DNA of 64,000 nt from Squalus acanthias (taxonomy: Eukaryota): the NCBI GenBank assembly GCA_030390025.1, contig CM059441.1, positions 20,894,001 through 20,958,000 on the forward strand, written 5' to 3'. This document shows positions 1 through 60,700 of the stretch, one piece after another. Below the pieces are notes generated by a model. The model was not told where the DNA came from. It worked only from the letters and a program-made list of their open reading frames with translations, and ran no database searches. Position 1 is the first letter of the stretch. Every line of letters starts with the position of its first letter. A program made the position numbers and the translations under genes.

Positions 1-1193
1 GCACCAGCAGAACCATGAACAACAGCAGCACCAACAGCAGCAGCAACAACAGGAGCGCCAAGCTGCTGCTCACCCGCCTGAAGCTGCACAGGCCAGAAGG
101 GGCCAGCGCATGGAAGGCCGTCGCGCAGGAGATACCCGCCAAACAGGGTCTACAGACACAGGGTCAGCTACCTCAACATGTCTGAGCAGCAGTGCCAAAG
201 GCGGCTCCGACTTTCGCGAGAGGTAGTGGGTGACATCTGCGCAATGCTGCAACAAGACCTGGAACCCAGAGGACCAGGTGGACACCCCTTACCAGTGGCC
301 GTCAAAGTCATCAACGCACTCAACTTTTTTGCCTCAGGCTCATTCCAGGTATCAGCAGCAGACATCAGCGGCATCTCCCAGGCGGCCGCACACACCTGCA
401 TGACGCAGGTAACCGATGCCCTCTTTGCCATCACGCACAATCACATCCATTTCACCAAGGATCGAGCAAGTATCACGGCACGTGCGGTTGGATTAGCTAA
501 TCTGGCAGGCTTTCCAAGGGTGCAGGGCGTCGTTGACTGCACACATGTGGCCCTTAAGGCACCCCATCGCAATCCAGGTATTTTTGTCAACCGCAAGATC
601 TTCCACTCCCTCAACGTTGAGCTGGTGTTTGACCACAAGAAGGAAGTTTTGCATGTTTGTGCCAAGTACCCTCGCAGTTGCCATGACTCCTTCATACTGC
701 GCCAGTCTAGTGTGCCTCCGCTATTCAGTCCGCCAGACCAACTTCACGGATGGCTACTTGGAGACAAGGGCTATCCCCTGAAGACGTGGCTAATGATGCC
801 GTTGAGGAGCCCATCCAACGCAGCTGAGGAGAGCTACAACTCCATCACATTTCCACCAGAGCCATAATCGAGCAAACCATCGTTATGCTGAAGATGCACT
901 TCAGATGCCTGGATAGATCAGGTGGAGCCCTGCAATACTCAGCAGCCAGGGTCTCCAGAATCGTCGTGGTTTGCTGTGCACTTCATAACATGGCACAGCG
1001 TCGTGGCTTGCAGATTCCTGAGGACCAAGTGGCTCCTCACATAGCCTCCTCAGATGAGGAGGAGGAGGAGGTGGAGGAGGAGGAGAGAGAGAACGAACAT
1101 CTTGCAGAGGCCCATCAACCAGCGGCAGCATTACGCGAGACCATAGCTGCCCGGAATGCAAAGAACGCACTCATCTTGGCCAGATTTGCTTAG
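1..1193 (+). pseudogene. Harbinger (HARBI1-like) DDE transposase, frameshifted near 845
   Basis: ORFs 178..867 and 885..1193 carry [48 protein letters not shown] and CCALHN. The N-terminus is Gln/His-rich (CAG/CAA repeats). Confidence 0.92.
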
Positions 1194-10729: not shown

Positions 10730-12153
10730 ATGGCGGACACGAACGCAGTTTCCGTGAAACTGCCGGAGTTTTGGGAAAACCAGCCCGAAGCCTGGTTTCT
10801 CCAAGCTGAATCTCGCTTCCGGCTGCGAAATATCACCACAGATGGGACGAAGTACGACTATCTCGTCACATCACTCAGTAGCGCCGCAGTTTCGAAGGTT
10901 TGGACAACGCTGCAGAACCCACCAGAGGAAGGCAAGTACGCACATCTCAGGACAGCGCTCCTTAAAAAATTTACGGCCTTGGCATATAAGCGAAACTGCC
11001 ACCTCCTCGACCTTCCAGGCCTCGGTGATGCCTCACCGTCAGACCTCCTCTCCCACATGCTCTCCCTCACCGACGAGAGCCCACCCGGATCCCTCTTCCG
11101 CACGCTGTTCATCCGCCAGCTCCCTCTCAGCATCCGCCCAGCGATCGTGGCGTCCGGCCTCACGAACCTGGAAGCCCTGGCCGATGAGGCCGACAAGCTG
11201 CTGTCCGCTCACTCCAGCCACGACGTCACTCTGGACCTGGCAGCCAATGCCTGGGCGCGCCCCTCACCATCCAGCACGCGGCCACAAGGGCCTGTCACCA
11301 GGCCCACGGGGCCTTCACGCCCCACTAACCCGGGCCACTGTTACTACCACGCACGGTTCGGCGCCAGGGCACAACGGTACACACCTCCCTGCTCTTTCAA
11401 GGCCACCCCTGTACCAGCCCCCGCGATGGCTGTGGGCCACGCGGGCTCCCTGCTGTACGTCACGGATGACAAAACCGGCCGCCGGTTCCTGTGCGACACT
11501 GGGGCTCAGCAGAGCATCATCCCGGCCTCCTCCCTCGACATCCAAAAGGGCGAACGAGGACCGGCGCTGGCTGCTGCTAACGGCTCGGAAATCCGGATAT
11601 ATGGCACCTAGACAGTCACCCTCGACCTCGCTGGTCGCCGCTACCGATGGGAGTTCATCACTGTCAAGGTGCTCTCCCCTCTCATCGGCGCAGATTTCCT
11701 GTGCGCCCACGGCCTACTGGTAGACATCCCCCGTCACCGCCTCGTGGACATGAACACCATGTCCCCCATCCTGGGCGCCATGGCCCCCCGTCAACCCGCC
11801 GACATGACGTCACAGTGCCACGCCCTGACCACGGATGACTACTCGGCACTCCTGGCCGAATTCCCAGCCCTTACCAATCCGACCTTCTCCGCGGAGGCCG
11901 CCAAACACGGGGTGGAACACTTCATCCCCACCACAGGCCCCCCAGTGTACGCCCACGCCCGCAGGCTGGACCCGGCCAAACTGGAGATCGCGCGGACCGA
12001 GTTTGCCACCATGGAACAGCTCGGCATCATCCGCCGCTCCAACAGTCCCTGGGCCTCCCCACTCCACATCGCCCCCAAACCAGGCGGAGGTTGGCGCCCC
12101 TGCGGGGATTACCGCCGCCTCAATGACGCCACCACTCCTGATCGGTACCCAGT
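10730..12153 (+). pseudogene. gag-pol: CsRn1-type Gypsy gag-pro-RT (single frame, in-frame TAG at 11609..11611, truncated early in RT)
   Basis: Motifs KLPEFWENQPEAWFLQAE, CHCC-type CYYHARFG..(C>Y)..PC, protease FLCDTGA, IGADFL, and RT start SNSPWASPLH, WRPCGDYRRLN, DRYPV. Confidence 0.9.
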
Positions 12154-12276
12154 GTATGAAGCTCCCGTGTCCAACAAATAACTACCCTTCTGCTTCTCTA
12201 CCTCCATCTCCACCAGGGGTCGCTTCCACGCATCATAGCTGAGCGGACACAGGTAGACGGGCTGTGCGGGCTCTAG
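12152..12276 (-). pseudogene. pro: Aspartic protease N-terminus, in frame after the gag UGA (truncated)
   Basis: Reading on past the TGA gives LEPAQPVYLCPLSYDAWKRPLVEMEVEKQKGSYLLDTGASYT; the DTG codons are at 12171..12163. Confidence 0.88.
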
Positions 12277-14100
12277 TCATTGGGTACTGTTGGACGGGGC
12301 TGCGGCACCTGCGGGGCCGGTAGCGACTGCCACCCTTCCTTGCGAAATCATGAGGGTGCGCATGGCTCCCAACATTGATTCTATCGCATCGGGATGGATA
12401 GGCACACCAGCTCCCTTATCGGGGGCAGGTGCCTGGGCTCGGGCTGCGGGATTTTTATCCCTGGACTCTTTCCAAGGGTTCCTGCAGTTCTTGCGCCAGT
12501 GCCCTGTCTTTCCGCACCCGAAACAAGCATTACTGGCTTGTGGGACGCGATTTCCCTCCTGATGCCACTCCCTTAGAGCCGGGGCGGTGGGCCGCGCCTC
12601 ATGCACCTTTCCCTTGAGGGGACGCGCTCCCATACTCCTAGTATTACGGTACCCTACCGTGAGTCGATTTAGGACCGACTCCTCTGTAGTGGCGGGGTTA
12701 GTGGGATCAAACCACGCTTTGGCCTGCTCCCTGACGGCTGGCAAACTGTTGGCTACTAAACACCTGAGCCAATGAATTAAACCAACCCCGTTCAAATAGG
12801 TGCGCTCTGGCGCACCTGGGCAGCTACGCTGGTATACTGGCCACAGCCTGTCGGCGAAAACCTTCGGGGGTTCTCCCTCCATCTGCACTGTCTGTCCCAA
12901 TCTAACGAACGGACCTTCATCGTCCGCTCCCAACACTTCCAGGACCTCGTCCCTCAATTCCCCATAGGTATGCTCTCCCCTTTTGCTCGCGTCTGAGAGA
13001 CACTGTAGGACCGAGCTGTCTAATGAGAACAGCAGCATTTTTGCCTTTTCTCCATTGTCGCAGCCATTAATGGCTGCGGTCTGCTCTACCTCCCTGAAAT
13101 GTACTGAAGGGTCGTCTGCCTCGGACAGCTTCCGTACGTGACTGATCATAGCCCTCAGCTGGTGTGCATTGTGTGGCAACACAAGCTGGCTGAGGAGATT
13201 CCCCGCTTCCCCATTGTCTCCCTCCGGGCCCCTCTTGATACCTGTAAGCGGGCACAACGGTCCCGGCTTCACTACTACTTCAGGGGGCTGTACTAACTCG
13301 GGGACCTCTTCCTCTACTTCTACCACTTCCTCCCTTACCCAGGTTGCCGAATAGCTGGGTGGCGCGGAGGGCACAGTGGCAAATACCTCCTCTGCTTTGT
13401 TCGGTGGGGATTTCTGAAATTCCCCACCCACCGGCGGCTGGTGTGCTGACAGGCTGATAAGGCATACCATGCCGTGCGCTTTATTCAGGGCCTCTTTAAG
13501 GTTCCCTATCTCTCTTTGGCAGACGCTGTGATCGGCCCCCTCATGTTTATCCTCGAGGGCCATCTTATATGCCGCCCTAACTCCCTTTAAGCTCTCTTCC
13601 TGGGCTTTTATTTGAGCAGCCAGGCGGGCACATCGTTCCCTTATTCTGCCCTCATTTAATTTTGCCTCAGTGACCTGGCACTCGAGGTAATCTATTTTCG
13701 CCTCATGGTGGTTGGCGACTAACTGGCGTTCTTGATGCAACGCATTTAAGGACGCGATGAGCTGCTGCCCCCCCGCGACCTTCTCGTCCATTTCCACCTC
13801 TAAACCCTTGATCTGAGCTGCCTGCGCTATGATGACCTGGTCCGAAAGCTGGACTTGCCTTTTATAACACATCAGCCAGACCGCTTTCTCTACAGATTTT
13901 TTATGTTCCTTGCTACCTGTCCATCTCACGGCTGCCTCTAGTGGACGCTTATCCACCAGCAGGTCACTTATCCATCTCTTAGTCAAATTCACTTTTCCAA
14001 AAACATAATCGGCTATTCTCTCTTCCATAACATTTCGCACATTCATACCAGGGTCTAACACATTATTTTCTTGCTGCCAGTGTCCCTTCGTGGTCGCCAT
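12277..14100 (-). CDS. gag: Gag polyprotein of an LTR retroelement (open for 607 codons; true start possibly the Met at 14046)
   Basis: N-terminal coiled coil, PSAPPSY, capsid MHR-like QMEGEPPKVFADRL, and CCHC knuckle CFGCGKTGHWRKNC. Directly follows the LTR and PBS. Confidence 0.92.
   Translation of the reverse strand: MATTKGHWQQENNVLDPGMNVRNVMEERIADYVFGKVNLTKRWISDLLVDKRPLEAAVRWTGSKEHKKSVEKAVWLMCYKRQVQLSDQVIIAQAAQIKGLEVEMDEKVAGGQQLIASLNALHQERQLVANHHEAKIDYLECQVTEAKLNEGRIRERCARLAAQIKAQEESLKGVRAAYKMALEDKHEGADHSVCQREIGNLKEALNKAHGMVCLISLSAHQPPVGGEFQKSPPNKAEEVFATVPSAPPSYSATWVREEVVEVEEEVPELVQPPEVVVKPGPLCPLTGIKRGPEGDNGEAGNLLSQLVLPHNAHQLRAMISHVRKLSEADDPSVHFREVEQTAAINGCDNGEKAKMLLFSLDSSVLQCLSDASKRGEHTYGELRDEVLEVLGADDEGPFVRLGQTVQMEGEPPKVFADRLWPVYQRSCPGAPERTYLNGVGLIHWLRCLVANSLPAVREQAKAWFDPTNPATTEESVLNRLTVGYRNTRSMGARPLKGKVHEARPTAPALREWHQEGNRVPQASNACFGCGKTGHWRKNCRNPWKESRDKNPAARAQAPAPDKGAGVPIHPDAIESMLGAMRTLMISQGRVAVATGPAGAAAPSNSTQ
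14082..14099 (-). promoter_or_regulatory. 18-nt primer binding site for tRNA-Arg (TCG-type 3' end)
   Basis: The minus strand reads TGGCGACCACGAAGGGAC, complementary to ...GUCCCUUCGUGGUCGCCA, 5 nt from the LTR end. Confidence 0.88.
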
Positions 14101-14104
14101 TATC

Positions 14105-16491
14105 TGTAAGGGGTTACGCGTGGCTCTGTGCTTAGCCTGGGTGCTAGTGCGGGGTTAGGCCTTGTTGCCTGTTCTGGTCTCCAGCCAGCCTGGTAGCACT
14201 AGACACCTGTGAGTGGTTCGACCCACTCGCCCTTACGGTTCTGACACTGGACTTAGGTGCGAGAGCAATAATGCAGAGAAAACTCAGGTAGACCCGGTTG
14301 AATAGTGCGAAATGGAAATTTTTTATTGCATATTGTTCAAGATTACGAAATAGATGTCATAAGCACAGATTAATGACATTACAAGCTTACATATATTTAT
14401 GAAACTAGGTTTAGGGAAACGAGGAGCGCATGACACATCGTAAAAGGGGACACACATTGGCCCAAAAATTAGTGCCGCTACGCGAGAGTACGCACTGTGT
14501 ACTCTCGCGTATTCTGTCTCCAATTGCCGGTTTTCTGCATGCACTGCGCATGCGCTGAAAACCGGCACTTGGTGAATTCAAAAGGGGGCGGTTCCTAGGT
14601 GAACCGCGTGCGCGCTACAGGCTGCGCGCACGCAGTTCACTTAGTGCTTTGGACGCGCAGTTAAGCATGGAAGATTTTAGACATAAAGAAAGGAGGCGTA
14701 AGACCCTCTTTTAACAAGGTAAGTACTTAATTAAGTATTATTTTGAATTTTTTTCAACAGGTATATCTTTTTTAGAGACTTTAAAGACAGGTAAGTTTAT
14801 TTTTATAACTTTTTAAAAGATTTTAAATTTTTTCAAAAATTTAATTTTTTGTTTAAAATGGTTAATTTATTTAACTATACTTATTTTATTAATCTGATGG
14901 TTTTTAAAAAAAAATTAATTGAGGTTTAGCTGTTCTTTTGGGGGGTTATAGTATTCATAGCTTTCGCAGCCGTGCTGTGAAAGCTATGAATGAAAGATGG
15001 TGTGCTGCCATTGGCTCTAACTGAGTCACGTGATCCCACAGCTCGCACGAATTAACTACGCCTGTGGGATACGAAAGCACTGCACAGATGCTGTCCAGAA
15101 CATCAAGTTCGTGCGAGCTCGGACTGAAAAAGCCAGCGCTCAGTGAGAGATCGCGGGAAGGCCTTACCCTCGCACAAACGCTCACTCACTCATTTTTGGG
15201 CCATTATAATTATCCTTAAAACATAAACCCTCCCCTATCAATACCTGTCCTAATCTAGATCTGTAGGATCTAGACTCATGCTCACCACTCGTGATAACTC
15301 GGAGAATTCCGAAACTCTGCTCGGATGTTTTCACCGCAGCACCTGACTATCCATGTGTTGATCAGGGGTCTCTGTTCCCCACTTGTTTACTCGCTTCTGC
15401 TCCGGCTAGCAGGCTGGACCGTCTGCTGTCATGAAGATCTGTGTTGACCTCGGACTCCAGATACAGTTCGAGGAAGAGTCTTACTGTGCCCGACACCAGT
15501 TGTCGGTAGAACTCGAAGAAAAGTCTTCCAGGGCCAGTTGTGGAGTAGCCGATAGAATTCGAAGAAATGGTTAATCGATTTTCGGGTGCGGTCGGGGTTT
15601 ACTGACCGCGGCGGCACGTGTAGTCGTCTTCTTCTCTTCTCATCTCATCTCATCTCATCTCCTCTCGGGCCTTCGGTTCCAACACCGTTTACCGACTTCT
15701 CGGGATGGTGCGCCCGCTTACCGGCCTTCGCAGACCAGCTCTCCACAGATCTTCGCGGCAAGCCACGAGGTTGACTCCCGGAAAATCCACGGATCAGAGG
15801 AGCGAGTCAAAGGAATAAGAGTCGAGCGAATAAGAGCGCGAGTAAGAGAAAGATGGACGTCTGGACACTACAGTTATAGTACTGTAATTCCTTATCTCCC
15901 GCCCAATCTTAATGTTCATCTTTTGTCATGTTTTGGCGCTCAAACTTCTTGTATGGGGTGGTATTTGTCGTTAATGGGTTTCGGTGACACTTGTAACTGT
16001 CTGACTACCCGTTAATATTTCTCCCATTGTGGAACCGGCTAGGAGTCTCCCTGGAGGGGTTTTGGGGGCCTCCGATTCTTGTTGTGAGTACCCGCGAACG
16101 GCTCTCTCATCGTAGAGCCGTGGGGAATTTGCGTATCAATGTCTTTTGGATGGGCCCCTAATTGCCCAGTACAATAGCCCTCGTTTGTGCATGGAAAACC
16201 TGATTCCAGCACTTATATTCCTTGCTTGGGTGTTAAAATACAAAACGATCTCGTCTTGTCTTATCTCAATATGCTGAGTCCTGTCCGATCTTGCTGAAAT
16301 GTTTATTGAAACGCCATCTTGTCTGCCTGCTGAAAATCTAGAACCTTCTGCCACGAGGCGTGGTGGCCATTTTACAGGCTGTTTGTGTCCGTTTTGAAAC
16401 CTGACAGCATTTTGCTGAAATAAAGCTGTTTATACGAAACTATGTCTCCTTCTCATTATTATGAAATCGCGATAATTTTGCGAATTCTACA
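14105..16491 (-). mobile_element. 5' LTR (about 1.64 kb excluding a MITE insertion) of the readthrough gag-pro element
   Basis: TGTA...TACA ends; colinear with the solo LTR at 54123..55764; minus-strand AATAAA at 14327..14322. Confidence 0.92.
14459..15202. mobile_element. 744-bp Harbinger-type MITE inserted in the LTR
   Basis: Ends GGCCCAAAAAT...ATTTTTGGGCC with TSD att. It is absent from the solo LTR (acacattata near 54471); a second copy lies at 50099..50842. Confidence 0.93.
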
Positions 16492-17569
16492 AACCTAACC
16501 ACCTTTCAGGGGTGGTATCAGCCCAATTATAATCATACTCGAACACCCCCGTTTCTTGTATTAACCAATACCTCAGGAGTTGGTAGGCCACAGGGGGCAT
16601 TATGTTTTAAAAAGCAGGCTGAAGTAAGCAGGATGCAGGATGAAAAGGAAGTCGGAGAGAGCTCTTGTAATCAAACAGTCGTGTGGCAACCACCAATTCC
16701 TGGCCTGTTTGACCGGGGATTTTATTCAGTTTGACTGGACAAAAGTAAATAATAAAACCAGCAGGTCCCCCTGGACCGGCGACCCTATCCGAATATGGAG
16801 GGGAGGAGAAGGTAATCTGACAGCCTATAACTGTACCTATTTTATATGCGGGAACAAGGCTTACCCATGGTTGCCACATAACTGGATAGGATCCTGCTAT
16901 TTAGGTTATGTAGTACCTTATATCCATATTTTAGATGAGATAGGAAAACATTATGAATTCCAAAGAACTAAAAGAGAGGTAGAAACTTATGAAAGAGTCT
17001 TTGGAGTATTAATAGCCCCATACGGAGTAGGGAAGTTAATGGGAGAAGTAACCGAGCTAGCGGACCTGATAGAAAAAGTAGCAAATGAAACTGAGGAAGG
17101 ATTGTCCGAAATGAGTGCGGAAATGGTAGCTATGAGAGTAATGACATTACAGAATCGAATGGCAGTAGATTATCTGTTGGCAGATAAAGGAGGAACTTGT
17201 GCTTTTATAGGGAGTGAATGTTGTACCTATATCCCAGACAGTTCAGAAAATATAACTAACATTGTCAAACACATAAGAGATGCAGTGAGTCAGTATAAGA
17301 ATCCAAAGAGCCAAGGATGGTTTGACTGGATGCTGGGAGGATGGCTGGGATCAATGGGACAAATATTATTGCATGGACTTATAGTAGTAGTAGTAGCAGT
17401 AATTGTATGTATCAGTCTGTTTGTCAAAATGGCCAAGTGCGGTTGTGATAGGCTAGGTAAGGCAGTTATACCCGAAGGAAGTATGATGGTGCAGAGGGAA
17501 CTAAATGAAGAAGAAGAGGACGAACCTCTAGGAGAAGAACTAAGGCGATTGAATAAGATAAATTTTTAA
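16492..17569 (+). pseudogene. env: ERV envelope with gamma-type TM (epsilon/gamma-like fish ERV); 5' end cut by the LTR insertion and SU frameshifted near 16720
   Basis: Furin site RTKR, fusion peptide, ISD LQNRMAVDYLLA, CX6CC (CAFIGSECC) and TM anchor ILLHGLIVVVVAVIVCISLFV. An upstream SU frame is open from 16492 (NLTTFQGW...GESSCNQTV). Confidence 0.92.
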
Positions 17570-17675: not shown

Positions 17676-18330
17676 AAAAAGGGGGGAATGTGGAAGTGTA
17701 TTTTTAATTGGACACAAAATGGCTTCTTGGACACAAAATGGCTTCATAAGACACAGAATATAAAATCTAAAATGGCCTACACAATGTCTGTTAGAAAGAT
17801 TAGCCAATTGTTTATAGTTTCAACCTAATGAAGGAATTTCAGTTTGCAGACTGTTTAAATTGCCCCCAATAAATAACTTAGGTTTGTAGAACAAGAAGTC
17901 TCTCTCTAACGAGCTTAAGATAACTAAGGCTATAGCGTGAATCACTATCTCCCTTGAATTCTAGATGGTGTGGTGGGAGAAATCACACGTCCCCCCTTTA
18001 GAAGGGATTTAGTTAGCCTTATCTCAAGGGATTTCTGCTGTTTTAAATCTTTATGACCTTTAGAAAGTCCTTTTATGTATACACAAATACTCTTTTAACT
18101 TGTTTTATAGGCACTATGCTGTCAATTAATGATTTATTACCATGTCATGTGATATAGGAAGCTTGTATTTTTCTGTGTATAAATTTGTAGCAGTTTTTGT
18201 ATTTGCAGGGTGTCATCATAGCCGAATTTGACTATGGTTGCACCCTCCTTGCAGCAAGTAAATTAATAAAACCTTCCTTTGACGCTACTTTATGTTTAAA
18301 GAGTCTTACTCGGAAGTCGAAACTTCGACA
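17676..18330 (+). mobile_element. Polypurine tract (17676..17688) and 3' LTR (17689..18330) of the env-bearing ERV
   Basis: AAAAAGGGGGGAA is followed by TGTGGAAG...CTTCGACA (imperfect inverted ends), with AATAAA at 18265. Harbinger sequence resumes at 18331. Confidence 0.88.
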
Positions 18331-19320
18331 GCAGTCAGTGGCACCCTGCACCATGGGGAAGCCCGCTATCCTCACAAAGCCCAATGCGCGTTCATGCTGT
18401 TTGGCCCGGGTCATCAGGAAAGAGATGTACTGGCGTCTCCTTTTATAGAGGGCATTTGTGACCTGACGGATGCAGCAATGGACCGTGAAATGGGAGATAT
18501 TGGCGATGTCCCCAGTAGCTGCTTGAAAGGAGCCGGTGGCATAAAAATTCAGAGCCACTGTGACCTTCACTGCCACCGACAGAGACGTCCTGGTCCTCAG
18601 TTGAGGCTGCAGATCTGGCTGCAGCAAGTGGCAGAGCTCAGTGACCACCTCCTTGCTGAAGCGCAGCCTGCGCAAACACTGCACCTCAGACAAATGAATG
18701 TAGGAGAATTGTTCCCGGAATACCCTGGAACAATTAAGGTCTCCTGTGCAGAGGCCTGTTGGCCCTCCTCCCTCTGGCCATGATTGCCACTCTCTCTCTG
18801 CGTCTCTGTTGCCTCCGATTCTGCAGGCACAGGACGATGCCCCAAATCAGTGCATCCCCCATCGTCTCTTGACAATCGAAGTAATGAAGGTCAAATCCAA
18901 AAGTACCTGCAAAGTGATGCTCAGTAGCCAAAACTACTTCACACAGTGTTGACTCTATGCAGTAGTCTCTCTCTCTCTCTCTCTCTCTCCTTCAGAATGA
19001 GTGGTGCAAAAATGTCTACCACAGAAAAAGGCAGGAAGAGGGTGCCTTTAAATAGCACCCCCCCAGCCCCTCACTGACTGGGAAACGTGCAAGTCTCCCT
19101 GTCATTGCTTATGGCAGGCGGAAAGGACGGGGGCGCCACTCAATATCCAGTCCGGGGCCTCACCAGGGCATTGCATGGTTGACTGACGGCTTGACCTGCG
19201 GGCGCAGGAGATTGGGGCGGTAAACTTTTGCGCCGCCGCAAAAACTCGTCAATTTCGCGAGCGGTGCAAACATCGCCGCGCCCGGGCGCTAGTTGCTTTG
19301 CGCCCCATTAGCACCCTTTT
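18331..19320 (-). mobile_element. Harbinger remnant: terminal region plus transposase N-terminal half, cut by the ERV
   Basis: MSEVQCLRRLRFSKEVVTELC...GFPMVQGATDC. 19000..19320 resembles one end of the 42608 MITE. Confidence 0.85.
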
Positions 19321-20589: not shown

Positions 20590-21900
20590 TACATCAAAGC
20601 TATGCAACAAACAGTAACTATATTTCCAAACTTCCATGCACAATGTGGCAATTTAGCTCCAGAACGGTCCAACCATATGAAGTGCTAACTTAGAATCTCA
20701 ATTATTTGCTCAGTGAGGGCCCTTTTTGACACAAGGGCATCATTGGGCCAGAAATTCGGCTCTCCGGCTTCCCGCGGGTGTAAGCATCGTGCGCGTACTT
20801 ACCTACCGCGCCTGCCGTTGTGTTTCGGGCCCACGAGGAATTCGAGTCCTGGGCCTCCTGCAGCTGCCGGCGCGCAGTGCTTGCGTATCCCAGGGGCGCA
20901 GTTAGTTCGAAGCGTCCCCTGGGATCATGTGGGCCATGGAGAGCCAATCCTAGCAGGGAATTTTCATTCATAGATTTGACAGGAAGACCTGTTAAATCTA
21001 TGAATAGAGATCGGCCCCAAAACCACACTAAAACTTCAAATAAATTTTTAAAAACCATCACATTTTTAAAATAACTATAAATTACATAAATCAACTACTT
21101 TAAACAAAAATTTAAATTTTTGAAAAAATTAATTCAACTTTTTAACGGTGCTAAAAATAAACTTACCTTTCTTTAAAGTATGTAAAAAAATAAACCTGTT
21201 GAAAAAATATTTAAATTGTAATTAATTAACCACTTACCTTGTTAAAAACAGGCCTTGCACCTCCTTTTTAAATGTACAGCTTCTCCATACTTAACCTCAC
21301 GGAGAAACCTAAAAAAAAAACGAAGTTCACTGCGTGCGCGCTGCCTCTCCCGCGCACGCGTTCGACTTGTGAACCCCTTCCTTCAGGGGAACGGAAGTTC
21401 TGGTTTCCCGCACATGCACAGTGCATGCGTGAAACCAGCACTTCAGGTGCCCTTACGGGTGAGTACACAGCGCGTACCCATCTGACAAGCGCCGAATTTC
21501 TGGCCCAATTATATCCTTGCTTGGCTCAGTATGGGAATGGTGCGCAGGTACGAGCAGCCTTGGTTACACTATATACCCTACGCTTCTCAAGTTTTCCTGC
21601 TAAGAGAACTGAGCATTAACCTGCATGATTTCCATCCGTGTATCACACATCTGTACATTGATTCGATGGAATTCCTTTTGTTTGATGTCACGATTGTAGT
21701 TTAGTGAATGAATAGTGCAGGGAATGATGTCCTGCACCTTTGAGAACCTACAAACACAGTGAGAAGCAAACAGGTTTGGCTGCTGTTTCTGTTTGGTATT
21801 GCTGAATGTTATGTACCCATGTGCATGCCTTTGCAAGTGTAAGAATAAGCCATTTGCTGTAAGAATTTGCTATAACTTGATCAAAGTTAAAAAAGGTGAC
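20590..21900 (-). pseudogene. Old Harbinger transposase remnant, interrupted by a MITE
   Basis: RFSKVQDIIPCT, KEFHRINVQMCD, GYN..EQII and HFIWLDRSGAKL...IVTVCC correspond to HARBI1-type motifs. Confidence 0.65.
20745..21506. mobile_element. Harbinger-type MITE with perfect 16-bp TIRs
   Basis: GGGCCAGAAATTCGGC...GCCGAATTTCTGGCCC, with att/aatt flanks and an AT-rich core. Confidence 0.9.
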
Positions 21901-42800: not shown

Positions 42801-45800
42801 TGCCCTGGTAGCGCCCCGGAGCGGATATTGAGTGGCGCCCCCTGCCTTACCGCCTCCCGCTAGCAACGACAGGTTGAGGGGAACGTTTTGCAGTCAGGAA
42901 GGGACTGGGGGAGCGCTATTTAAAGGCGACCGCTTCCTGCCTTTTTTGTTGGTGACATTTTTGAACCACGCATTCTGAGAGAGAAAGAGAGAGACTTCTG
43001 GAGAGATTCAACGCTGTGTGAAGGGGTTTTGGGTACTGAGCAGCACTTTGCAGGTTCATTTTGATTTGCCCTTCCTTGTATCGATTTAGAAGAGACTCTG
43101 GGGGTTGCACTCTGAGCTCTTTCCCTGGGTCTCTGCATTGTTCTTTCCAGCAGATTTGATGTACAGGTCTCTCCAGGCCGAGATTCAAGGCTGCAATGAG
43201 CAGGATGTGGATGGAAAGCAAGATCAACCCTCCCCTTTAAGAACTGGCAGGCACATAATTGTCTGTGTTCAATTGCTGACTGACATCACATGAGCTTCGC
43301 CAGCGCTCTGAGTTAGCGCCTCACTCCTCGGCCTTTGCGCCTTAAGACAGATGTGTAGCGCCTGATTTAGTGCTCCAATCACCTCCAGGGGCGATAAAAG
43401 TCAAGTTTGCAGTCGGAGGCGATAATTAGCGCCAGGCGCTAATCTTTGCGCCCGGCCGATAATTGCGCCCCAAACGGGGCGATACTGAATTTTTCTCCCC
43501 AAGTTCCTGTTGAGGCGTTAGCTTTGCCAGCATGGGCTCGATGGGCCGAATGGCCTCCTTCTGTTCTGTAACCATTCTATGATTCTATGGTCCCTGTCCG
43601 GCTCCTCACTGCCCCCAGCAATGCATCAAGGGAGGCGATGTTAAAGCGGGATACAGCTTTGTGAGTCCTGAGTCTATCTTCTATGATTATTTTCCCTGTT
43701 CCAAAGCTTCCAAATTCCATCTTTGAATTGACCAGTTAAATACTCGAGTTGAGATCACATCATGCGGGTCCACACCACACCCGCTACCGCACATACAACG
43801 CCACACCCAGGAGTAAAATTATAATGAGCTGGCTGCGTAAAAATGCCACAGACAGACGCACTGAAATCACTTCTGAGTTTCCCACGCGATATCGGATCCC
43901 CTGCACCGAACACGCCTCGAAGTTAATATCCGGGCCATTGCATTTAATAATTGATCCATCAGGAGGTATGATTGGGAGGAAGATAATGTCTCAACAATTA
44001 ATAAAGAGGGTTCTTTTACCATCAAAACAGTGACCTAGCTTTTCAATTTTAGTTTAGTTCGCTTGTAAAGTTGACCAAAATATCTCATTGATGATGTGAG
44101 CCACCCATCATATCAGGAAACCTATGAAACCTGTTAAGCTCTGTGGATTGATTCTATTTTTATTATTTTCTAAGAATTCATGCCATTAGTAACGACTTGC
44201 TGCTCACTGCTTTTGTTATTGTCTGACTATTAGTTTTAGTCTGAATGCAAACATCTGACATTTAATACAGTTCAGAGACAGGAAAATGTGGGGGCATCCC
44301 ACATGATGTCTGACGCAATAGCCGGTAGTTAAAGGAATTGTTTGTCCCATAATACTTGAAATTCTTGGTCAGCTCGTTGGACAGGCCACGAATTGGGAAT
44401 GTGCAACATGAGTCGGATTTCCTGACCTCTGCCCGCTACCTGTGAGACTCTGCACTGCTGCGGAGCCTTGGGATATCGGAGATGTCATGTTTCCTCCCAG
44501 ATATAACATTGATCAGACATTTCAGTAGAGAGTAATAAAGTAAATCGCTGAGAAATGTACCGTAAGATATTTGTAGCTTTACTTTAAACAATGGATCGAG
44601 GGCGTAAGATTTTTCAATCCCACAGCTGTACCATCCTGCATCTCCTGGACGAAGATCCTTCATAGTAACAACAAATATTCCTGCTGTCTTGTTATCTGTG
44701 ATTGACATTCTTCCTTGTCTTCCATGTCGCACATTTGTTTTTACTAATTCTGAACAACCGATAGTTCTCCCGTGACACCAATATTTCACATAAGACTGGT
44801 ACTCCGATTTGTCATAGTAACAATCTATTGTGATCGCTCTTCCCACTACTCCTGTTACGTATTTTTCTGCCCACAATGCACCTGAAACTGAAGAGACAAC
44901 ATTTGTGAAATTGAACAGGAAATAACTGCTTAATACAAACAGATACATTTTAATAAGAGTTACCACTCTGCACAGAGGAATCTCTCCACTCCATCTATTG
45001 ATACAGTTGAATTCCTTCTAGTTTCTGATGAAAGGAAACATTAATATAGTGCCTTATCACATCCTCAGGATGTGCCAAAGCACTTCACAGCCAATGATTT
45101 ACTTTTGAAGTATAGTCAGTATTGTTATTGTGTCAGCTGTCGCTCAGTCTTTGCACTCTCGGCTCTGAGTCAGTAGATTGTGGGTTCAAGCCCCACTCCA
45201 GAGACTCTGAGCAGAAAATCGAGACTGACATTCCAGTACAGTATTGAGGGAGTGCTGCACTGTTGGAGGTGCCGTCTTTCAGATGAGTTATTAAACCCAG
45301 AGCGCGTCTGCCCTCTCAGGTGGATGCAAAAATTCCCAGGGAACTATTTCAAAAAAGAGCTGGGAAATTCCTCCCGGTGTCCTGGCCAACATTTATCCTT
45401 CAACCAAAAATCAATATTAAACAGATTATCTGGTCATTATCACCTTGCTGTTTGTGGGACCTTGCTGTGCGCAAATTGTCTGACTCTTTTCCTACATTAC
45501 AACATTGGCAACACTTCAAATAAATAATTGGCTGTAAATCGCTTTGGGGCGTCATGAGGTCATGAAAGGTGCTACTTAAATGCAAGTCTTAGTTTCTGAC
45601 AGCAACAACAACTTGAATTTGATAATCATCTCCCATTCATCCAGCACCATGGGAACAGCCAAAGGAATGCCCATCCTCTCAACTTCGTTGCTGCAACCTG
45701 CACTGCAGCAGGATTTGGAGAGGGAAGGTGAACATGGTTCATGCAACCAAGGACATAGAAAGGAAGAGGATTGAGGATCGGCAAGGGAAGATTCAGGAAC

Positions 45801-49429: not shown

Positions 49430-51818
49430 GGGAGGAATTGAATGAAATCACTATTTGTAGGGAAATGGTGTTAGGGAAATTGATGGGATTGAAGTCCGAT
49501 AAATCCCCAGGGCTTGATAATCTACATCCTAGGGTACTTAAGGAAGTGGCCCTAGAAATAGTAGATGCATTGCTGGTCATCTTTCAAAATTCTATAGCCT
49601 CTGGAACAGTTCCCATGGATTAGAGGGTAGCTAATGTAACCCCACTATTTATAAAAGGTGGTAGAGAAAAAACGGGGAATTATGTAAGGCTGACATCGGT
49701 AGTGGGCAAAATGCTGGAGTCCATTGTAAAAGATGTAATAGCAGAGCACTTGGAAAACAGTGACAGGATCAGACAAAGTCAACATGGATTTACAAAAGGT
49801 AAATCATGCCTGACTAATCTACTGGAATTTTTTGAGGATTTAACTGGTAGAATAGATAAGGGAGAACCAGTGGATGTGGTGTATTTGGACTTTCAGAAGG
49901 TTTTTGATAAGGTCCCGCATAAGAGATTAGCGTGCAAAGTTAAGCACATGGGATTGGGGGTGAGGTACTGATTTGGATAGAGAACTGGTTGGCAGACAGG
50001 AAGCAAAGAGTTGGAATAAACGGGTCTTTTTCCGAGAAGCAGGAAGTGACTAGTGGGGTACCGCAGGAATCGGTGCTAGGACCCCAGCTATTCACAATGG
50101 CCCAAAAATTAGTGCCTCTACGCGAGAGTACGCACTGTGTACTCTTGCGTATTCTGTCTCCAATTGCCGGTTTTCTGCATGCACTGCGCATGCGCTGAAA
50201 ACCGGCACTTGGTGATTTCAAACGGGGGCGGTTCCTAAGTGAAACGCGTGCGCGCTACAGGCTGCACGCACGCAGTGCACTTAGTGCTTTGAACGCACAG
50301 GTAAGCATGGAAGATTTTGCACCTAAAGAAAGGAGGCGTAAGACCCTCTTTTAACAAGGTAAGTAGTTAATTAAGTATTATTCTGATTTTTTTTCAACAG
50401 GTATATCTTTTTTAGAGACTTTAAAGAAAGGTAAGTTTATTTTTATAACTTTTTAAAAGATTTTAAATTTTTTCAAAAATTTAATTTTTTGTTTAAAGTG
50501 GTTAATTTATTTAACTATACTTATTTTATTATTGTGATGGTTTTAAAAAAAAAGTTAATTGAGGTTTAGCTGTTCTTTTGGGGGGGTATAGATTCATAGC
50601 TTTCACAGCACTTCCTGTGAAAACTATGAATGAAAGATGGTGTGCTGCCATTGGCTCTAACTGAATCACGTGATCCCACAGCTCGCACGAATTAACTGCG
50701 CCTGTGGGATACGCAAGCACTCCCCAGCTGCTGTCTAGAAAATCAAGTTCGTGCGAGCTGGGAATGAAAAAGCCGGCGCGCATTGAGATATCGCGGGGAA
50801 GCCTTACCCCCGCACGAAGGCTCCCTCTTTAATTTCTGGGCCAATATATATTAATGATCTAGACGAGGGAACTAGATGTAATATCTCTAAGTTTGCAGAG
50901 GACACAAAGCTGGGTGGGCGTGTGTGCTGTGAGGAGGAGGCACAGAAACTCCAGTATGATTTGGACAGGTTGGGTGATTGGGCAGATGCATGGCAGATGC
51001 AGTATAATGTGGATAAATGCGAGGTTATCCACTTTGGTGGCAAAAACAGGAAGACAGATTATTATCTGAACAACAATAGATTGGGAAAAGGGGAAGTGCA
51101 ATGAGACCTGGGTGTCCTTGTGCACCAATCGCTGAAGGTAAGCAAGCAGGTGCAGCAGGCGGTTAAGAAGGCAAATGGTATGTTGGCCTTCATAGCGAGA
51201 GGATTCGAGTACAGGAGCAAGGATGTCTTGCTGCAGTTGTACAGGGCCTTGGTGAGACCACACCTTGAGTATTGTGTGCAGTTTGGTCGCCTTATCTGAG
51301 GAAGGATGTTCTTGCCATGGAGGGAGTGCAGCGAAGATTTACCAGACTGATACCTGGGATGGCAGGAATGACGTATGAAGAGAGATTGGGTTGATTAGGC
51401 TTATATTTGCTAGAGTTGAGAAGAATGAGAGGGGATCTCATTGAAACTTTAAAATTCTAACAGGACTAGACAGAATAGATGCAGGAAGGATGTTCCCGGT
51501 GGCGGGGGAGTCCAGAACCAGGGGTCACAGTCTAAGGATAAGGGGTAAGCCATTTAGGATTGAGATGAGGAGGAATTTCTTCACCCAGAGAGTGGTGAAC
51601 CTGTGGAATTCTCTACCACAGAAGGCAGTTGAGGCCAATTGATTAAATATATTCAAGAAGGAGATAGATATATCTCTTAAGGCTAAAGGGATCAAGGGAT
51701 ATGGGGAGAAAGCAGGGACAGGGTACTGAATTTGGATGATCAGCCATGATCTCATTAAATGGTGGAGCAGGCTCGAGGGGCCGAATGGCCTACTCCTGCT
51801 CCTATTTTCTATGCTTCT
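49430..51818 (+). mobile_element. 5'-truncated CR1 LINE (TSD atactg), interrupted by a MITE
   Basis: KSPGLDNLHPRVLKE, SQHGFTKGKSCLTNL, KFAEDTK and tail; atactg at 49424 and 51819. Confidence 0.92.
50099..50842. mobile_element. 744-bp MITE, second copy (TSD aat)
   Basis: aat|GGCCCAAAAATT...AATTTCTGGGCC|aat; colinear with 14459..15202. Confidence 0.93.
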
Positions 51819-54122: not shown

Positions 54123-55764
54123 TGTAAGGGGTGACCTGTGGCTCTGTGCTTAGCCTGGGTGCTAGTGCGAGGTTAGGCCTTGTTGCCTGGTCTGGTCTCC
54201 AGCCAGCCTGGTAACACTAGACACCTGTGAGTGGTTCGACCCACTCGCCCTTACGGTTCTGACACTGGACTTAGGTGCGAGAGCAATAATGCAGAGAAAA
54301 ACTCAGGTAGACCCGGTCGAATCGTGCGAAATGGAAAATCTTTATTGCATATTATTCAAGATTACGAGATACACGTCATAAGCACAGATTAATGACAGTA
54401 CAATCTCACACACAGTTATGAAACTAATTTTAGGGAAACGAGGAGCGCATGACGCATCGTAAAAGGGGACACACATTATACTTATCCTTAAAACTTAAAC
54501 CCTCCCCTATCAATACCTGTCCTAATCTAGATTTGTAGGATCGAGACTCATGCTCACCACTCGTGATAACTCGGAGAATTCCGAAACTCTGCTCGGATGT
54601 TTTGACCGCAGCACCTGACTATCCACGTGTTGATCAGGGGTCTCTGTACCCCACTTGTTTACTCGTCTCTGCTCCGGCTAGCAGGCTGGACCGTCTGCTG
54701 TCATGAAGATCTGTGTTGTCCTCGGAGTTCCGATACTACTCAAAGAAGAGTCTTCCTGTGCCCTCACACCGGTTCGATAAAACTCGAAGAAGGGTCTTCC
54801 TAGGCAAGGAAGTGTTTATTCGACTTACAGGCGCGGTCAGGGCTTACTGACCGTGGCGATGCGTATTGTCGTCTTCTTCTCTTCTCATCTCATCTCATCT
54901 CATCTCATCTCCTCTCGGGCCTTCGGTTCCAACACCGTTTACCGACTTCTCGGGATGGTGCGCCCGTTTCAAGGCCTCACAGCCCAGTTCTCCACAGATC
55001 TTCGCGGCAAGCCACGAGGTTGATCCTAGCGGATCAGAGTCCAGAGCCGTCAGGCAAGAGAATAAAAGTTCAACAGCCTTCCAGCGAGTCAAAGCAGCAA
55101 GCGCAAGAAGAAGCAGAGGCAGCAGTCAGCAGAGCGATGGACGGTCGTACCTTACAGTTATAGTGCTGTAATTCCTCTTTTCCCGCCCAATCTTAATGTC
55201 TATCTTTTGTCAGGGTTTTGGCGCTCAAACTTCTTGTATAGGGTGATCTCCGTCTTTAATGGGTTTCGGTGATACTTGTAACTGTCTGAGTACCCGTTAA
55301 TACTTCTCCCATTGTGGAACCGGCTAGTAGTCTCCCTGGAGGGGTTTTGGGGCTTCCAAATGCTTTCTGTAACTACCCGCAAACGGCTCTCTCATCATAG
55401 AGTCGTGGGGATTTTGCATATTAATGTCTTTGGATGGGTCCTTGATCGCTCGGTACAATAGCCCTTATTCGCACAAGGGAGACCGATTCCAATATTTATG
55501 TATAAAATGCAAACCCATCATGTCTTGTCAATTATCTCAAATGTGCTGAGTCCTGTACGATCTTGCACAAATGTTTATTGGAACGCCATCTTGTCTGCCC
55601 ATTGAAAGTCTAGAACTTTCTGCCACGAGGCATGGCGGCCATTTTACAGGCTGTTTGTGTCCGTTTTGAAACCTGACAGCATTCTGCTGAAATAAAACTG
55701 TTTGTACGAAACTTTATGTCTCCTTCTTATTTTATAAAATCGCGATAATTTTGCGAGTTCTACA
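54123..55764 (-). mobile_element. Solo LTR (1642 bp) with 4-bp TSD agat
   Basis: agat|TGTAAGG...TTCTACA|agat; the empty site ttcagattcacctc is near 37620. Confidence 0.95.
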
Positions 55765-57705: not shown

Positions 57706-60700
57706 TACCAAGTGACCAGTTTGGATAAACATTAATTTAAAAACTTCACTGATCATATTGTTTGTTTAAAGTAACATTTACCAATGCCGCTGATTTGTGT
57801 CACATAACTGCAGGTCTTCCCTGGTCTGTTGAAGACTGACACGTTAACCATTTCACTGGATTTTTCCCCTGATTATTTGAGCCTGTGCAGTAATATTGGT
57901 GATGTTGCTGTTTGAAGGATTGACAATGTAGATCCAGTTTATTGGTGTCAGAGATCTTTGAATCTTCAGACGGGGTCTTTTCGTACCATTTGTACTGAAT
58001 GGGAAGGGATCCCTGGACAGACTCACAGGAGACTGACACTGAGCCCCCAAAACATGAGACATTTGGTGGCGATAAAAATCTAAGTACAGGAACTGACACG
58101 GATTCTGTGGGAAAGAAATCAACATTCAGATACTGACTGAACATCTAAAAATCAAATGCTCTCTAATTTTCAGCACTTCTGTATCTCAGCCAGGGCCTGC
58201 CATGTTGGAATCTCACCGGCACATCTACCTCTCCATGTCTCTCCACCCTCTGAGCAGCCTGAACTACCATGTCTGCCATTATATCAGAACATAGCAGGGC
58301 TCCCGATCAGGACAGCAGCAATGATACTGAGGATGTGTCAACGTGAAAATCTGGGCTCACAATTCCTCTCAGTAGCAGGTAGCCAGCCTCCAAAGCTGTT
58401 TAATTGTTTGACTCTCGAACATGAATTAGTTGGAGAGAGTCCCAGAAAACCACAGCAGAATATACGGGAATAAAATTGGCAGATATCTGTTACATTTTGT
58501 GGCTTTAGATCAGGAGTGTTATTGTGATTGTTTTCAGTTAACTGCAGCTGAAAAGGAATCCTTTGGTCCCGACATTTGCGAGGAGGCGGGGAGTGAGCGA
58601 GTGTGTGGTCGGGAAACCTGGAAATGCCGGAAGGGTGGAGGTCGTGCCGAATTTAACGGCAGGATCTCATTCGAATTCCTGTCTGCCGTTTCCCGCCCAT
58701 CAGTGGGAGATCGCGGGAGGGGGGAGGTTAGCCGATCGTGGGTTCTTGGAGTTGGCCAATTGCTGATTGGGGTGGGGGGGAGAGGTCACGGCAGAAGAAG
58801 GTATAGGAGACAGAGGCTGGATAATTTGATACGGCCCAAAAACAGTTCGGACCCACCACACCGGACATGCCTCGAAGTTATTATCCAGGCCATTGCATTT
58901 AATAGTTGGTGCATCAGAGGTTACTCTTGGGAGGAAGATACTGTCTCAAAATTAATAAAGAGGCTTCCTTTACCATTAAAACAGTGACCTAGCTTTTCAA
59001 TTCGAGTTCAGTTTGCTTGAAATGTTGAACACTGTTCTACAGACCAAAGTATCTCATTGATGATGTGAGCCACCCATCATATCAGGAAGCCTATGAAATC
59101 TGTTAAGCTCTGTGGATTGATTCTATTTTTATTATTTTCTAAGAATTCATACCATTAGTAACGACTTGCTGCTCACTGCTTTTGTTATTGTCTGACTATT
59201 AGTTTCAGTCTGAATGCAAACAAATGACATTTAATACAGTTCAGAGACAGGAAAATGTGGTGAGCATCCCACATGATGTCTGGCGCAATAGCCGATAGTT
59301 AAAGGAATTGTTCGTCCCATAATACTTGAAATTCTTGGTCAGCTCATTGGACAGGCCACGAATTGGGAATGTGTAACATGAGTCGGATTTCCCGACCTCT
59401 GCCCGCTACCTGTGAGACTCTGCACTGCTGCGGAGCCTCGGGATATCGGAGCTGTCATGTTTCCTCCCAGATAAAACATTGATCAGACATTTCAGTAGAG
59501 AGTAATAAAGTAAATCGCTGAGAAATGTACCGCAAGATATTTGTAGCTCTACAGCTAACATTGGATCGAGGGCGGGATATTGTTCAATCCCACAGCTGTA
59601 CCATCCTGTATCTTCTGAGAGAAGATCCTTCATAGTAACAACAAATATTCCTCCTGTCTTGTTATCTGCGATGGACATTCTTCCATGTGGCCCATTTGTT
59701 TTTACTAAATCTGAACAACAGTGAGTCATCCCATGACACCAATATATCACATGTGACTGGTACTGTTTGTCACAGTGACATTTTACTGTGATCGCTCTTC
59801 CCACAACTCCTGTTACATTATCTTTTGCCCACAATGCACCTGAAAATGAGGAGACAAAATTTCAGAAATTGAACAGGAAATAACTGCTTAATACAAACAG
59901 ATACATTTTAATAAGAGTTACCACTCTGTACAGAGGAATCTCTCCACTCCATGTATTAATACAGTTGAATTCCTTCTAGTTTATGATGAAAGAAAACTTT
60001 AATATAGTGCCTTATCACATCCTCAGGATGTGCCAAAGCACTTCACAGCCAATGATTTATTTTTGAAATATCATCTGTGTCTCAGTGTTAGCACTAATGC
60101 CTCTGAGTCAGTAGAATGTGGGTTCAAGTCCCACTCGAGAGACCTGAGCCTAAAATTTAGGCTGACACTCCAGTGCAGTATTGAGGGAGTGCTGGTTAGA
60201 ATTTGTTACGACACCAATTAACTTGCTCGGAGGGGAGCTTGTTCTGTGGGGAAAGAGTTTACACTAAAATGGCAGGAGGGAGGTTAAAGAGGCAGAGAGA
60301 AGAGCAGAAAGGACAAAGGAAATAGGAAAGATAAAAGAGGGAAATGGGGAGGTAAAGGAATATCAGATCAGAAAGAGGCAGGACTGTAAAGAGGAAGATT
60401 ACCAAGCAGACAGAGGCACAGGTCAGTTGCATAAGTACATAAAGTATTCTGTGTAAAATTGGTAAGCGAGAGGCACAAATCTTTCTGGGGAAGTTTGATG
60501 TAATAGAATTAAAGGTCATGGCTTAGGGTAGGGTGGGACTGGGAGTTCAACATTGATGGTTACAAAATACATTCGTCATAAATGGAGGAGAGTTGTATTA
60601 ATCAAAAATTCCATTACAGCATAAGATTAATATGGGGCGGGAGTGAAAATACTAAATCTACTTGGTTAGAGTTAAAGAGTGAGAAGAAAGCGGTTACTTA

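Follow-up and report, generated by a model that had tools for sequence, protein, structure and literature searches.

A truncated endogenous retrovirus (ERV) in the genome of Squalus acanthias carries a single in-frame UGA codon between gag and pro, in the context A-UGA-CUAG, and readthrough of this stop is most likely the route by which its family makes Pol, as predicted from the reading frames and their relatives. The element lies on the minus strand of a 64,000 nucleotide (nt) stretch (NCBI GenBank assembly GCA_030390025.1, contig CM059441.1, positions 20,894,001 to 20,958,000), referred to below as the window, whose first letter is position 1 in all coordinates given here. Aligned Gag ends and variants in related contigs indicate that the stop is a family-wide feature rather than a private mutation. 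From its modeled Gag, the element most likely belongs to a cartilaginous-fish family of class I (epsilon-like) ERVs.

The frame that starts at the gag ATG (14100) passes through 607 gag codons, UGA, and 35 sense codons to the protease motif D-T-G (12171-12163) within LLDTGAS, with this one stop in its 675 codons. A sequence-only reading of the window had proposed that gag ends in CAA TGA CTA G and that the same frame continues for 35 codons to DTG. Both claims hold, with CAA at 12282-12280, TGA at 12279-12277, and CTAG at 12276-12273; the coordinates given there stand, and the strand, which that reading left unstated, is minus throughout. Gag and pro therefore share one frame with one stop between them, the class I arrangement, and UGA followed by CUA(G) is the type II arrangement for readthrough. 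Counting both strands, the window has 2375 TGA triplets, of which only seven are directly followed by CTAG, so that chance occurrence of the UGA-CUAG context is unlikely. Of the 41 residues encoded after the stop, residues 16-39 align without gaps to residues 5-28 of the HIV-1 protease, and the extension scores E 0.022 against Pfam model RVP, below the curated cut-off. No slippery heptamer of the form XXXYYYZ occurs within 12157-12480, and both alternative frames have four stops each in that interval.

Sense codons at the stop were looked for in other copies, as the sequence-only reading would have had to yield to them, and none was seen, either in the alignment of Gag ends or among the variable sites listed at the stop. 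Three other full-length close Gags, from P0001 of a skate (59% identity), P0002 (48%), and P0004 (37%), end within one alignment column of residue Q607, and two of the three also end in Gln. This count leaves out the fragments P0003, P0005, and P0018 and the distant Gags; the latter are 18-21% identical and poorly aligned in their tails, where P0012, P0021, and P0022 end 1-13 columns later and P0026 ends six columns earlier. A further homologue search for Gag gained only a fragment. Fused Gag-Pol was absent among 6551 candidate proteins of 1085-3095 residues, a result of little weight.

Close relatives were compared as DNA contigs that aligned to 12100-12520 at 80% likeness or more, in four of 22 listed runs (X1, X6, X8, and X15, from organisms A, B, C, and E and four studies, with 559, 226, 61, and 27 records). 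The run search gave 20 holders in nine studies, none of them on record as RNA; run X1 may derive from the source species. Variants are described for the 40 best-supported of 75 variable sites and for differences of at least 3%. Among these 40 of 75 sites, no variant falls in 12272-12280 in any of the four runs, the A at -1 included, and the contigs show no indel and no joint. For X6 and X15, counts of change types exclude an A-to-G change at 12279, the change that would give the CpG-type sense codon, since the only A-to-G site in those runs is 12372. The neighbors of the stop context do vary, at the -2 base and at synonymous positions +6, +9, and +12 (counted from the first base after the stop). 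The -2 base is the middle base of CAA, and it is changed in 22% (X6), 39% (X8), and 69% (X15) of summed contig depth and in 0.03% in X1; variation on this scale in three of four runs removes CAA from the signal of which the sequence-only reading had made it a component.

The stretch beyond the stop behaves as coding sequence. Among the same 40 of 75 sites, variants after the stop comprise six synonymous changes and one Lys-to-Arg replacement, and those in the gag tail comprise 12 synonymous changes and 21 replacements (Fisher p=0.033). The density of variable sites is 7 in 122 positions after the stop vs. 33 in 241 in the gag tail (p=0.022, with sites treated singly, again for the best 40 of 75). 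Five of the synonymous sites and the Lys-to-Arg change lie between the stop and the first AUG after it, and this stretch is therefore under coding constraint in the gag frame. Judged by eye, the frame remains open and in register in all seven loose ends displayed for the protease part, with 30 more loose ends beyond these. A divergent subfamily, represented by records 1, 18, and 25 from three runs, fits at about 84% over 90 nt (12193-12282) and departs 1-3 nt upstream of the stop, which places the boundary of conservation at the stop itself. Close relatives, at the 40 of 75 sites, thus combine a conserved context with coding constraint on the extension, as expected of a type II site. In all four runs, summed contig depth is highest at 12235-12264; as it cannot serve to rank one part of a gene above another, we do not count it as evidence.

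The class of the element was assigned from Gag, reverse transcriptase (RT) being absent at the locus. The closest named protein is an uncharacterised protein of the skate Rhinoraja longicauda, at 58% identity. The Rhinoraja locus is LOC144598870. Pfam finds zf-CCHC in Gag at E 0.0065, below the curated cut-off, and matches of the Gag profile to PDB sequences cover the knuckle or the coiled coil only. An AlphaFold model built from 11 sequences, with a mean predicted local distance difference test score (pLDDT) of 68 and a predicted template modeling score (pTM) of 0.27, comprises a long coiled coil, a capsid with Pro at its start and a beta-hairpin (strands 286-290 and 302-307, after P284), and a CCHC knuckle. 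Its best viral structural matches are Gag of walleye epidermal hyperplasia virus 2 (WEHV-2; E 1.4e-7), then Gag of a Rhinella marina ERV, and Gag-Pol of walleye dermal sarcoma virus (WDSV). The best solved match is the capsid of murine leukemia virus (MLV), at Z 11.3-11.5, followed by Copia (10.3) and PEG10 (9.8); compared with MLV capsid residues 1-228, the model gives Z 11.3 and a root-mean-square deviation of 7.0 over 186 aligned residues. The capsid thus has the N-terminal Pro and beta-hairpin of orthoretroviruses and lies closest to gamma- and epsilonretroviral Gag, by a small margin over Copia. No foamy capsid is among the listed structural matches, which does not exclude a foamy affinity. 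WEHV-2, the Rhinella marina ERV, WDSV, and MLV, or the genus of each, are all listed with gag-pro readthrough sites (PMC13517186). The Gag studied here lacks a myristoylation Gly.

The sequence-only reading had added to the stop a stem-loop directly downstream. Its arms, GAGC-CC-GCACAG and CTGTGT-CC-GCTC around 9 nt, are found where they were drawn (12273-12241), and this piece folded in isolation gives exactly that structure, at -11.0 kcal/mol. Its role as a signal fared worse. The outer 4 bp start at +4, that is, inside the ribosome's mRNA channel, which holds about 11-12 nt after the A site (PMC13517186); the +6 variant (24-58%, three runs) disrupts one outer-stem pair; and another fold is favored in context. 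The z of -3 applies to the 33-nt window chosen by hand and to no other, and among 1788 33-nt windows of gag 7.6% fold equally well or better. In contexts of 77-154 nt the pair probability of the hairpin is at most 0.05, and a 106-nt fold has z -0.7. Because gag windows fold comparably and pairing in context is weak, the hairpin is not beyond chance. The X6 and X8 subfamilies diverge after +32, losing the outer 3' arm, and no compensatory double change was seen among the displayed variants.

Of the remaining variants, that at +9 falls in the internal loop and that at +12 keeps the inner stem as G-U. The data allow this inner 6-bp stem, at +10, but it is weak: alone it has -4.8 kcal/mol, a value matched by 11.6% of 21-nt gag windows. 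A longer stem that pairs +20..+38 with +61..+80 is favored over the hairpin in context, and neither structure does better than shuffled sequence in unbiased windows. Inspection by eye shows that loop bases +20..+24 of the inner hairpin can pair with either +48..+52 or +76..+80; the result would be an H-type pseudoknot after a 9-nt spacer (12225-12267), not distinguished from chance. The nearer of the two loop pairings is not kept in one divergent subfamily.

On the reading we prefer, ribosomes on unspliced RNA would mostly terminate at UGA and release Gag, and a few per cent would decode it with a near-cognate tRNA, adding an amino acid, and go on in frame. Translation would then run through a linker of about 11 residues into protease and, where family members are intact, through the rest of Pol; the outcome would be a high ratio of Gag to Gag-Pol. 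Suppression of UGA, as the sequence-only reading had it, stands as the best explanation of a stop placed at the gag-pro junction, shared across the family, and nowhere seen as a sense codon; readthrough itself we infer. If readthrough is real, the linear type II context A-UGA-CUAG is probably its main cis signal, because UGA-CUAG functions in human cells with 12 nt of 3' sequence, in four human genes, with a purine preferred at -1 (PMC4132726). Some downstream structure might add to it, though we would not count on this, and a contribution from the hairpin as originally drawn appears unlikely.

Readthrough could also depend mainly on structure, as in gammaretroviruses, with the inner hairpin at +10, the +20/+80 stem, or the loop pseudoknot as stimulator and CUAG secondary. 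The inner stem starts 9 nt past the stop, the spacing of known stimulators, and its sole listed variant preserves pairing; no variant falls in 12225-12264 among the 40 best-supported of 75 sites, and the core 3' arm of the long stem stays compatible, by eye, in two divergent loose ends. We nevertheless consider this version rather doubtful, given the lack of any compensatory double change, the failure of either stem to beat shuffles in unbiased windows, an inner stem no more stable than many gag windows, the divergence of subfamilies after +32, and the report that CUAG alone is enough in four human genes (PMC4132726). Splicing offers a way to conserve the motif with no readthrough at all, if Pol were made from an RNA that skips the stop by means of an acceptor at the AG of CUAG (+3/+4) or the next AG (+5/+6). 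CUAG does end in a canonical YAG, and spumaviruses express pol separately (PMC8278194), but the site would be a poor acceptor by established rules: the 24 nt upstream contain only 12.5% U, and additional AGs compete at -10, -23, and -32 relative to the end of the stop. The CCHC knuckle and a capsid like that of MLV rather than of foamy viruses also speak against it. The lack of listed joints does not bear on splicing, as the contigs are DNA only. We regard splicing as improbable.

Still less probable is initiation at the first AUG after the stop, by reinitiation or internally, or a frameshift or ribosomal bypass. The AUG is 70 nt downstream, and a non-canonical bypass has been proposed for the element Tca2 (PMC2194720). 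However, that AUG corresponds to about residue 13 of HIV protease, so that the N-terminal strand of the dimer would be lost, and the coding constraint described above lies upstream of it, in the gag frame; frameshifting finds no slippery heptamer and closed alternative frames. The reading of UGA as a nonsense mutation that arose only in this copy, or in a non-autonomous branch, of an element with gag-pol in one frame is already largely refuted and is the least probable of all. It would suit a copy that is defective anyway, its protease being cut, and rare variants and 35 sites are outside the listing, but the end column of gag is shared by Gags of 59, 48, and 37% identity, no listed variant touches the stop in four organisms, gag is otherwise intact over 607 codons, and no fused protein was found. 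Selenocysteine recoding was considered and ranked low. An Rfam scan of 11800-16700 gave no match except one chance match and no selenocysteine insertion sequence (SECIS), although the 3' half of the element is absent from the locus.

Several points weigh against readthrough at a conserved context in a class I element. With 35 of the 75 variable sites and all differences under 3% outside the listing, rare sense alleles are possible; the most divergent subfamily falls below this 3% limit, and the listing gives no letters for its stop. P0001, P0002, and P0004 were compared as proteins only, and the encoded Leu-Glu could partly hold CUA-G in place. The class is drawn from structural matches of 13-16% identity, with the Copia capsid close behind that of MLV, and a search of a language-model atlas gave Gags of Ty3/PNMA type (scores 0.92 and 0.95), which we treat as leads only. 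Even in epsilonretroviruses, according to PMC13517186, readthrough has never been experimentally verified, and the flanks of the in-frame UGA of Tca2 are reported to have failed to direct readthrough in yeast (PMC2194720).

Features of the element and of its surroundings in the window, with the basis of each assignment. LTR, long terminal repeat; PBS, primer binding site; ORF, open reading frame.
Feature	Position	Strand	Basis
Stop context A-UGA-CUAG (stop 12279-12277), proposed readthrough signal	12273..12280	-	Sequence read directly
Hairpin of the sequence-only reading, +4 to +36, of which +10 to +30 (12267-12247) form the inner 6-bp stem; of doubtful role	12241..12273	-	Folds alone; outer stem broken by 12271 variant, inner kept as G-U by 12265 variant
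Alternative longer stem, +20..+38 with +61..+80; core +20..26 / +74..80; putative	12197..12257	-	Fold of +1..+120, with pair probabilities of 0.86-0.98 in the core
Intact gag of 607 codons, with N-terminal coiled coil, capsid (residues ~284-497), a single CCHC knuckle (525-540), and variable tail	12280..14100	-	ORF, Pfam, structure model, homologues
In-frame extension: ~11-residue linker and N-terminal part of retroviral aspartic protease, 3' end cut off; DTG 12171-12163	12152..12276	-	HIV-1 protease alignment; weak Pfam RVP
Break point: provirus joined tail-to-tail to Ty3/gypsy fragment, 3-5-nt overlap	12150..12154		Sequence; loose ends of other copies
Ty3/gypsy fragment, unrelated (DUF7041 gag, protease, start of RT), abuts break	10730..12154	+	ORFs, Pfam, homologues
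5' LTR, TG...CA ends, AATAAA at 14327, interrupted by ~744-bp insertion	14105..16491	-	Two-block match to solo LTR
Solo LTR, same family, 4-bp target-site duplication ATCT	54123..55764	-	LTR comparison, flanks
PBS-like 18-mer starting TGG, 5 nt past LTR end, overlaps first gag ATG	14082..14099	-	Position read directly

The copy studied is incomplete. Other copies of the provirus and of the abutting Ty3/gypsy fragment have loose ends that part from the window sequence at 12152-12158 and at 12150-12154, and this departure of other copies at about 12152 means that the remainder of pol and the 3' part of the provirus were lost here by deletion. Pol is lost at about 12152, and since the cut lies within protease, this copy cannot make Pol. 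The Ty3/gypsy fragment was apparently fused to the provirus by that deletion; it has an in-frame stop of its own, at about 11609-11611, in its protease region. At the other end, the 5' LTR matches the solo LTR in two blocks, at 93% and 82% identity, and the LTR is about 1.64 kb long. The family thus shows TG...CA ends with a target-site duplication, and a gag whose capsid and CCHC knuckle precede an aspartic protease, as an ERV should. Scans for related loci confirmed none of 42 pattern matches in viral contigs, none of 594 in metagenomes, and none of 128 in prokaryote genomes, and second scans of the viral contigs and the metagenomes gave none.

The only database match to the PBS-like 18-mer, found with a pattern biased to tRNAs, is the 3' end of one phage tRNA-Asp; the 18-mer may correspond to an Arg tRNA. 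The first in-frame gag ATG, with A at -3 and G at +4, comes right after the LTR end, leaving no leader (14082-14105, minus strand). The skate Gag P0001 begins with the same nine residues as the gag frame read from this ATG, and P0004, P0010, and P0017 begin with a related peptide, possibly another PBS read as codons. In all five Gags the frame is open for 24-25 codons up to a conserved second Met. From these frames, Gag may start inside the PBS, with the proviso that gene callers favor long frames; such a start is, to our knowledge, unusual for a retrovirus.

Other elements surround the provirus. The insertion of about 744 bp in its LTR (14459-15202) has terminal inverted repeats and a 3-bp duplication and resembles a miniature inverted-repeat transposable element (MITE) of the PIF/Harbinger type; a second copy lies at about 50093-50853 and a partial copy at about 20874-21477. 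ORFs 82-867 and 18232-18846 are presumably related to Harbinger transposases. A gamma-type env at 16628-17569 (plus strand; Pfam TLV_coat, E 1.3e-12) is followed by a purine tract and, from about 17680, LTR-like sequence. This env lies on the opposite strand and beyond the 5' LTR; it is part of a different ERV, and the provirus seems to have inserted into that ERV in opposite orientation. Immunoglobulin V-set exons occur in duplicate, at 44436-45017 and 59406-59861 on the minus strand, within repeated blocks of about 15 kb (Pfam V-set E 2e-11 for the first); they are presumably CD300/pIgR-like.

UGA also stands between gag and pro in some human class I ERV groups. The rarity of UGA there that the sequence-only reading implied does not hold up, as in-frame UGA at gag-pro has been described for the swim bladder sarcoma virus of salmon (SSSV), zebrafish endogenous retrovirus (ZFERV), and the toad (Rhinella marina) ERV (PMC13517186), and for XtERV-S (PMC8278194). 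The first three have the contexts UGAAGA, UGACGA, and UGAAGU, respectively (PMC13517186). Like the element studied here, they place the UGA between zinc knuckle and protease DTG and come from aquatic vertebrate hosts, and the toad Gag is the second-best structural match to ours. Our element differs from them in UGA-CUAG, a long N-terminal coiled coil, the missing myristoylation Gly, an AUG that overlaps the PBS-like site, and the length of its LTR, and the likeness described is one of layout, host, and Gag structure. XtERV-S, a class III frog ERV with the order gag-TGA-pol, likewise has a single in-frame UGA between gag and pol; it is described as related to ERV-L, with 5-bp duplications (PMC8278194), in contrast to the 4 bp and CCHC knuckle here. 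Tca2, a Candida Copia element of the order gag-UGA-pol, shares the single in-frame UGA but is fungal, and its flanks gave no readthrough in yeast (PMC2194720). The Gags of lokiretroviruses, zebrafish Bhikhari, and chicken ENS-ERNI share the order of an N-terminal coiled coil and then a retroviral capsid, reported to be MLV-like in lokiretroviruses; Bik-1 Gag is described with a glycine-rich patch instead of a CCHC knuckle. The host classes listed for lokiretroviruses do not include cartilaginous fishes, and membership in that group is said to rest on RT and Env, both absent from our locus.

Gamma- and epsilonretroviruses express Pol by readthrough, which, by the account in PMC13517186, has been dissected in gammaretroviruses only and is assumed for epsilon-related viruses, whose cis signals are unknown. 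Moloney murine leukemia virus (MoMLV), with the gammaretroviral UAG-G and an H-type pseudoknot after an 8-nt spacer, has the same logic of gag, stop, and pro in one frame, and MLV has the closest capsid fold among solved structures. Our element has UGA rather than UAG and a type II rather than a type III context, and no strong G-C-rich pseudoknot was found. In-frame UGA at gag-pro is therefore already known, and novelty for a retrovirus seems confined to the UGA-CUAG context; a literature search found no report of UGA-CUA in one, with most subscription journals, Repbase, and Dfam outside its reach. Nothing is overturned, since several fish and frog retroviruses with in-frame UGA at this junction are on record. 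We tentatively suggest, at somewhat less than even confidence, that an undescribed lineage of cartilaginous-fish retroviruses sets its ratio of Gag to Pol by A-UGA-CUAG without a pseudoknot and is the first such retrovirus, that the motif is kept as the preceding gag tail turns over, and that Gag may start at an AUG in the PBS, with no leader.

The type II context, UGA-CUA, is known from alphaviruses, a triatovirus, and human genes (PMC13517186; PMC4132726). The alphaviruses Sindbis, Middelburg, and chikungunya virus and the genes AQP4, MAPK10, OPRK1, OPRL1, and MDH1 have a stop context identical to that of our element, with a purine at -1. Here, in contrast, the context stands at a retroviral gag-pro junction, and readthrough is predicted from sequence. 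A multi-copy family with a ready-made UGA-CUAG provides a short, directly testable cassette. If the prediction is true, retroviruses can use a structure-independent cellular motif, and alongside the alphaviruses and the cellular genes this would be its third convergent use.

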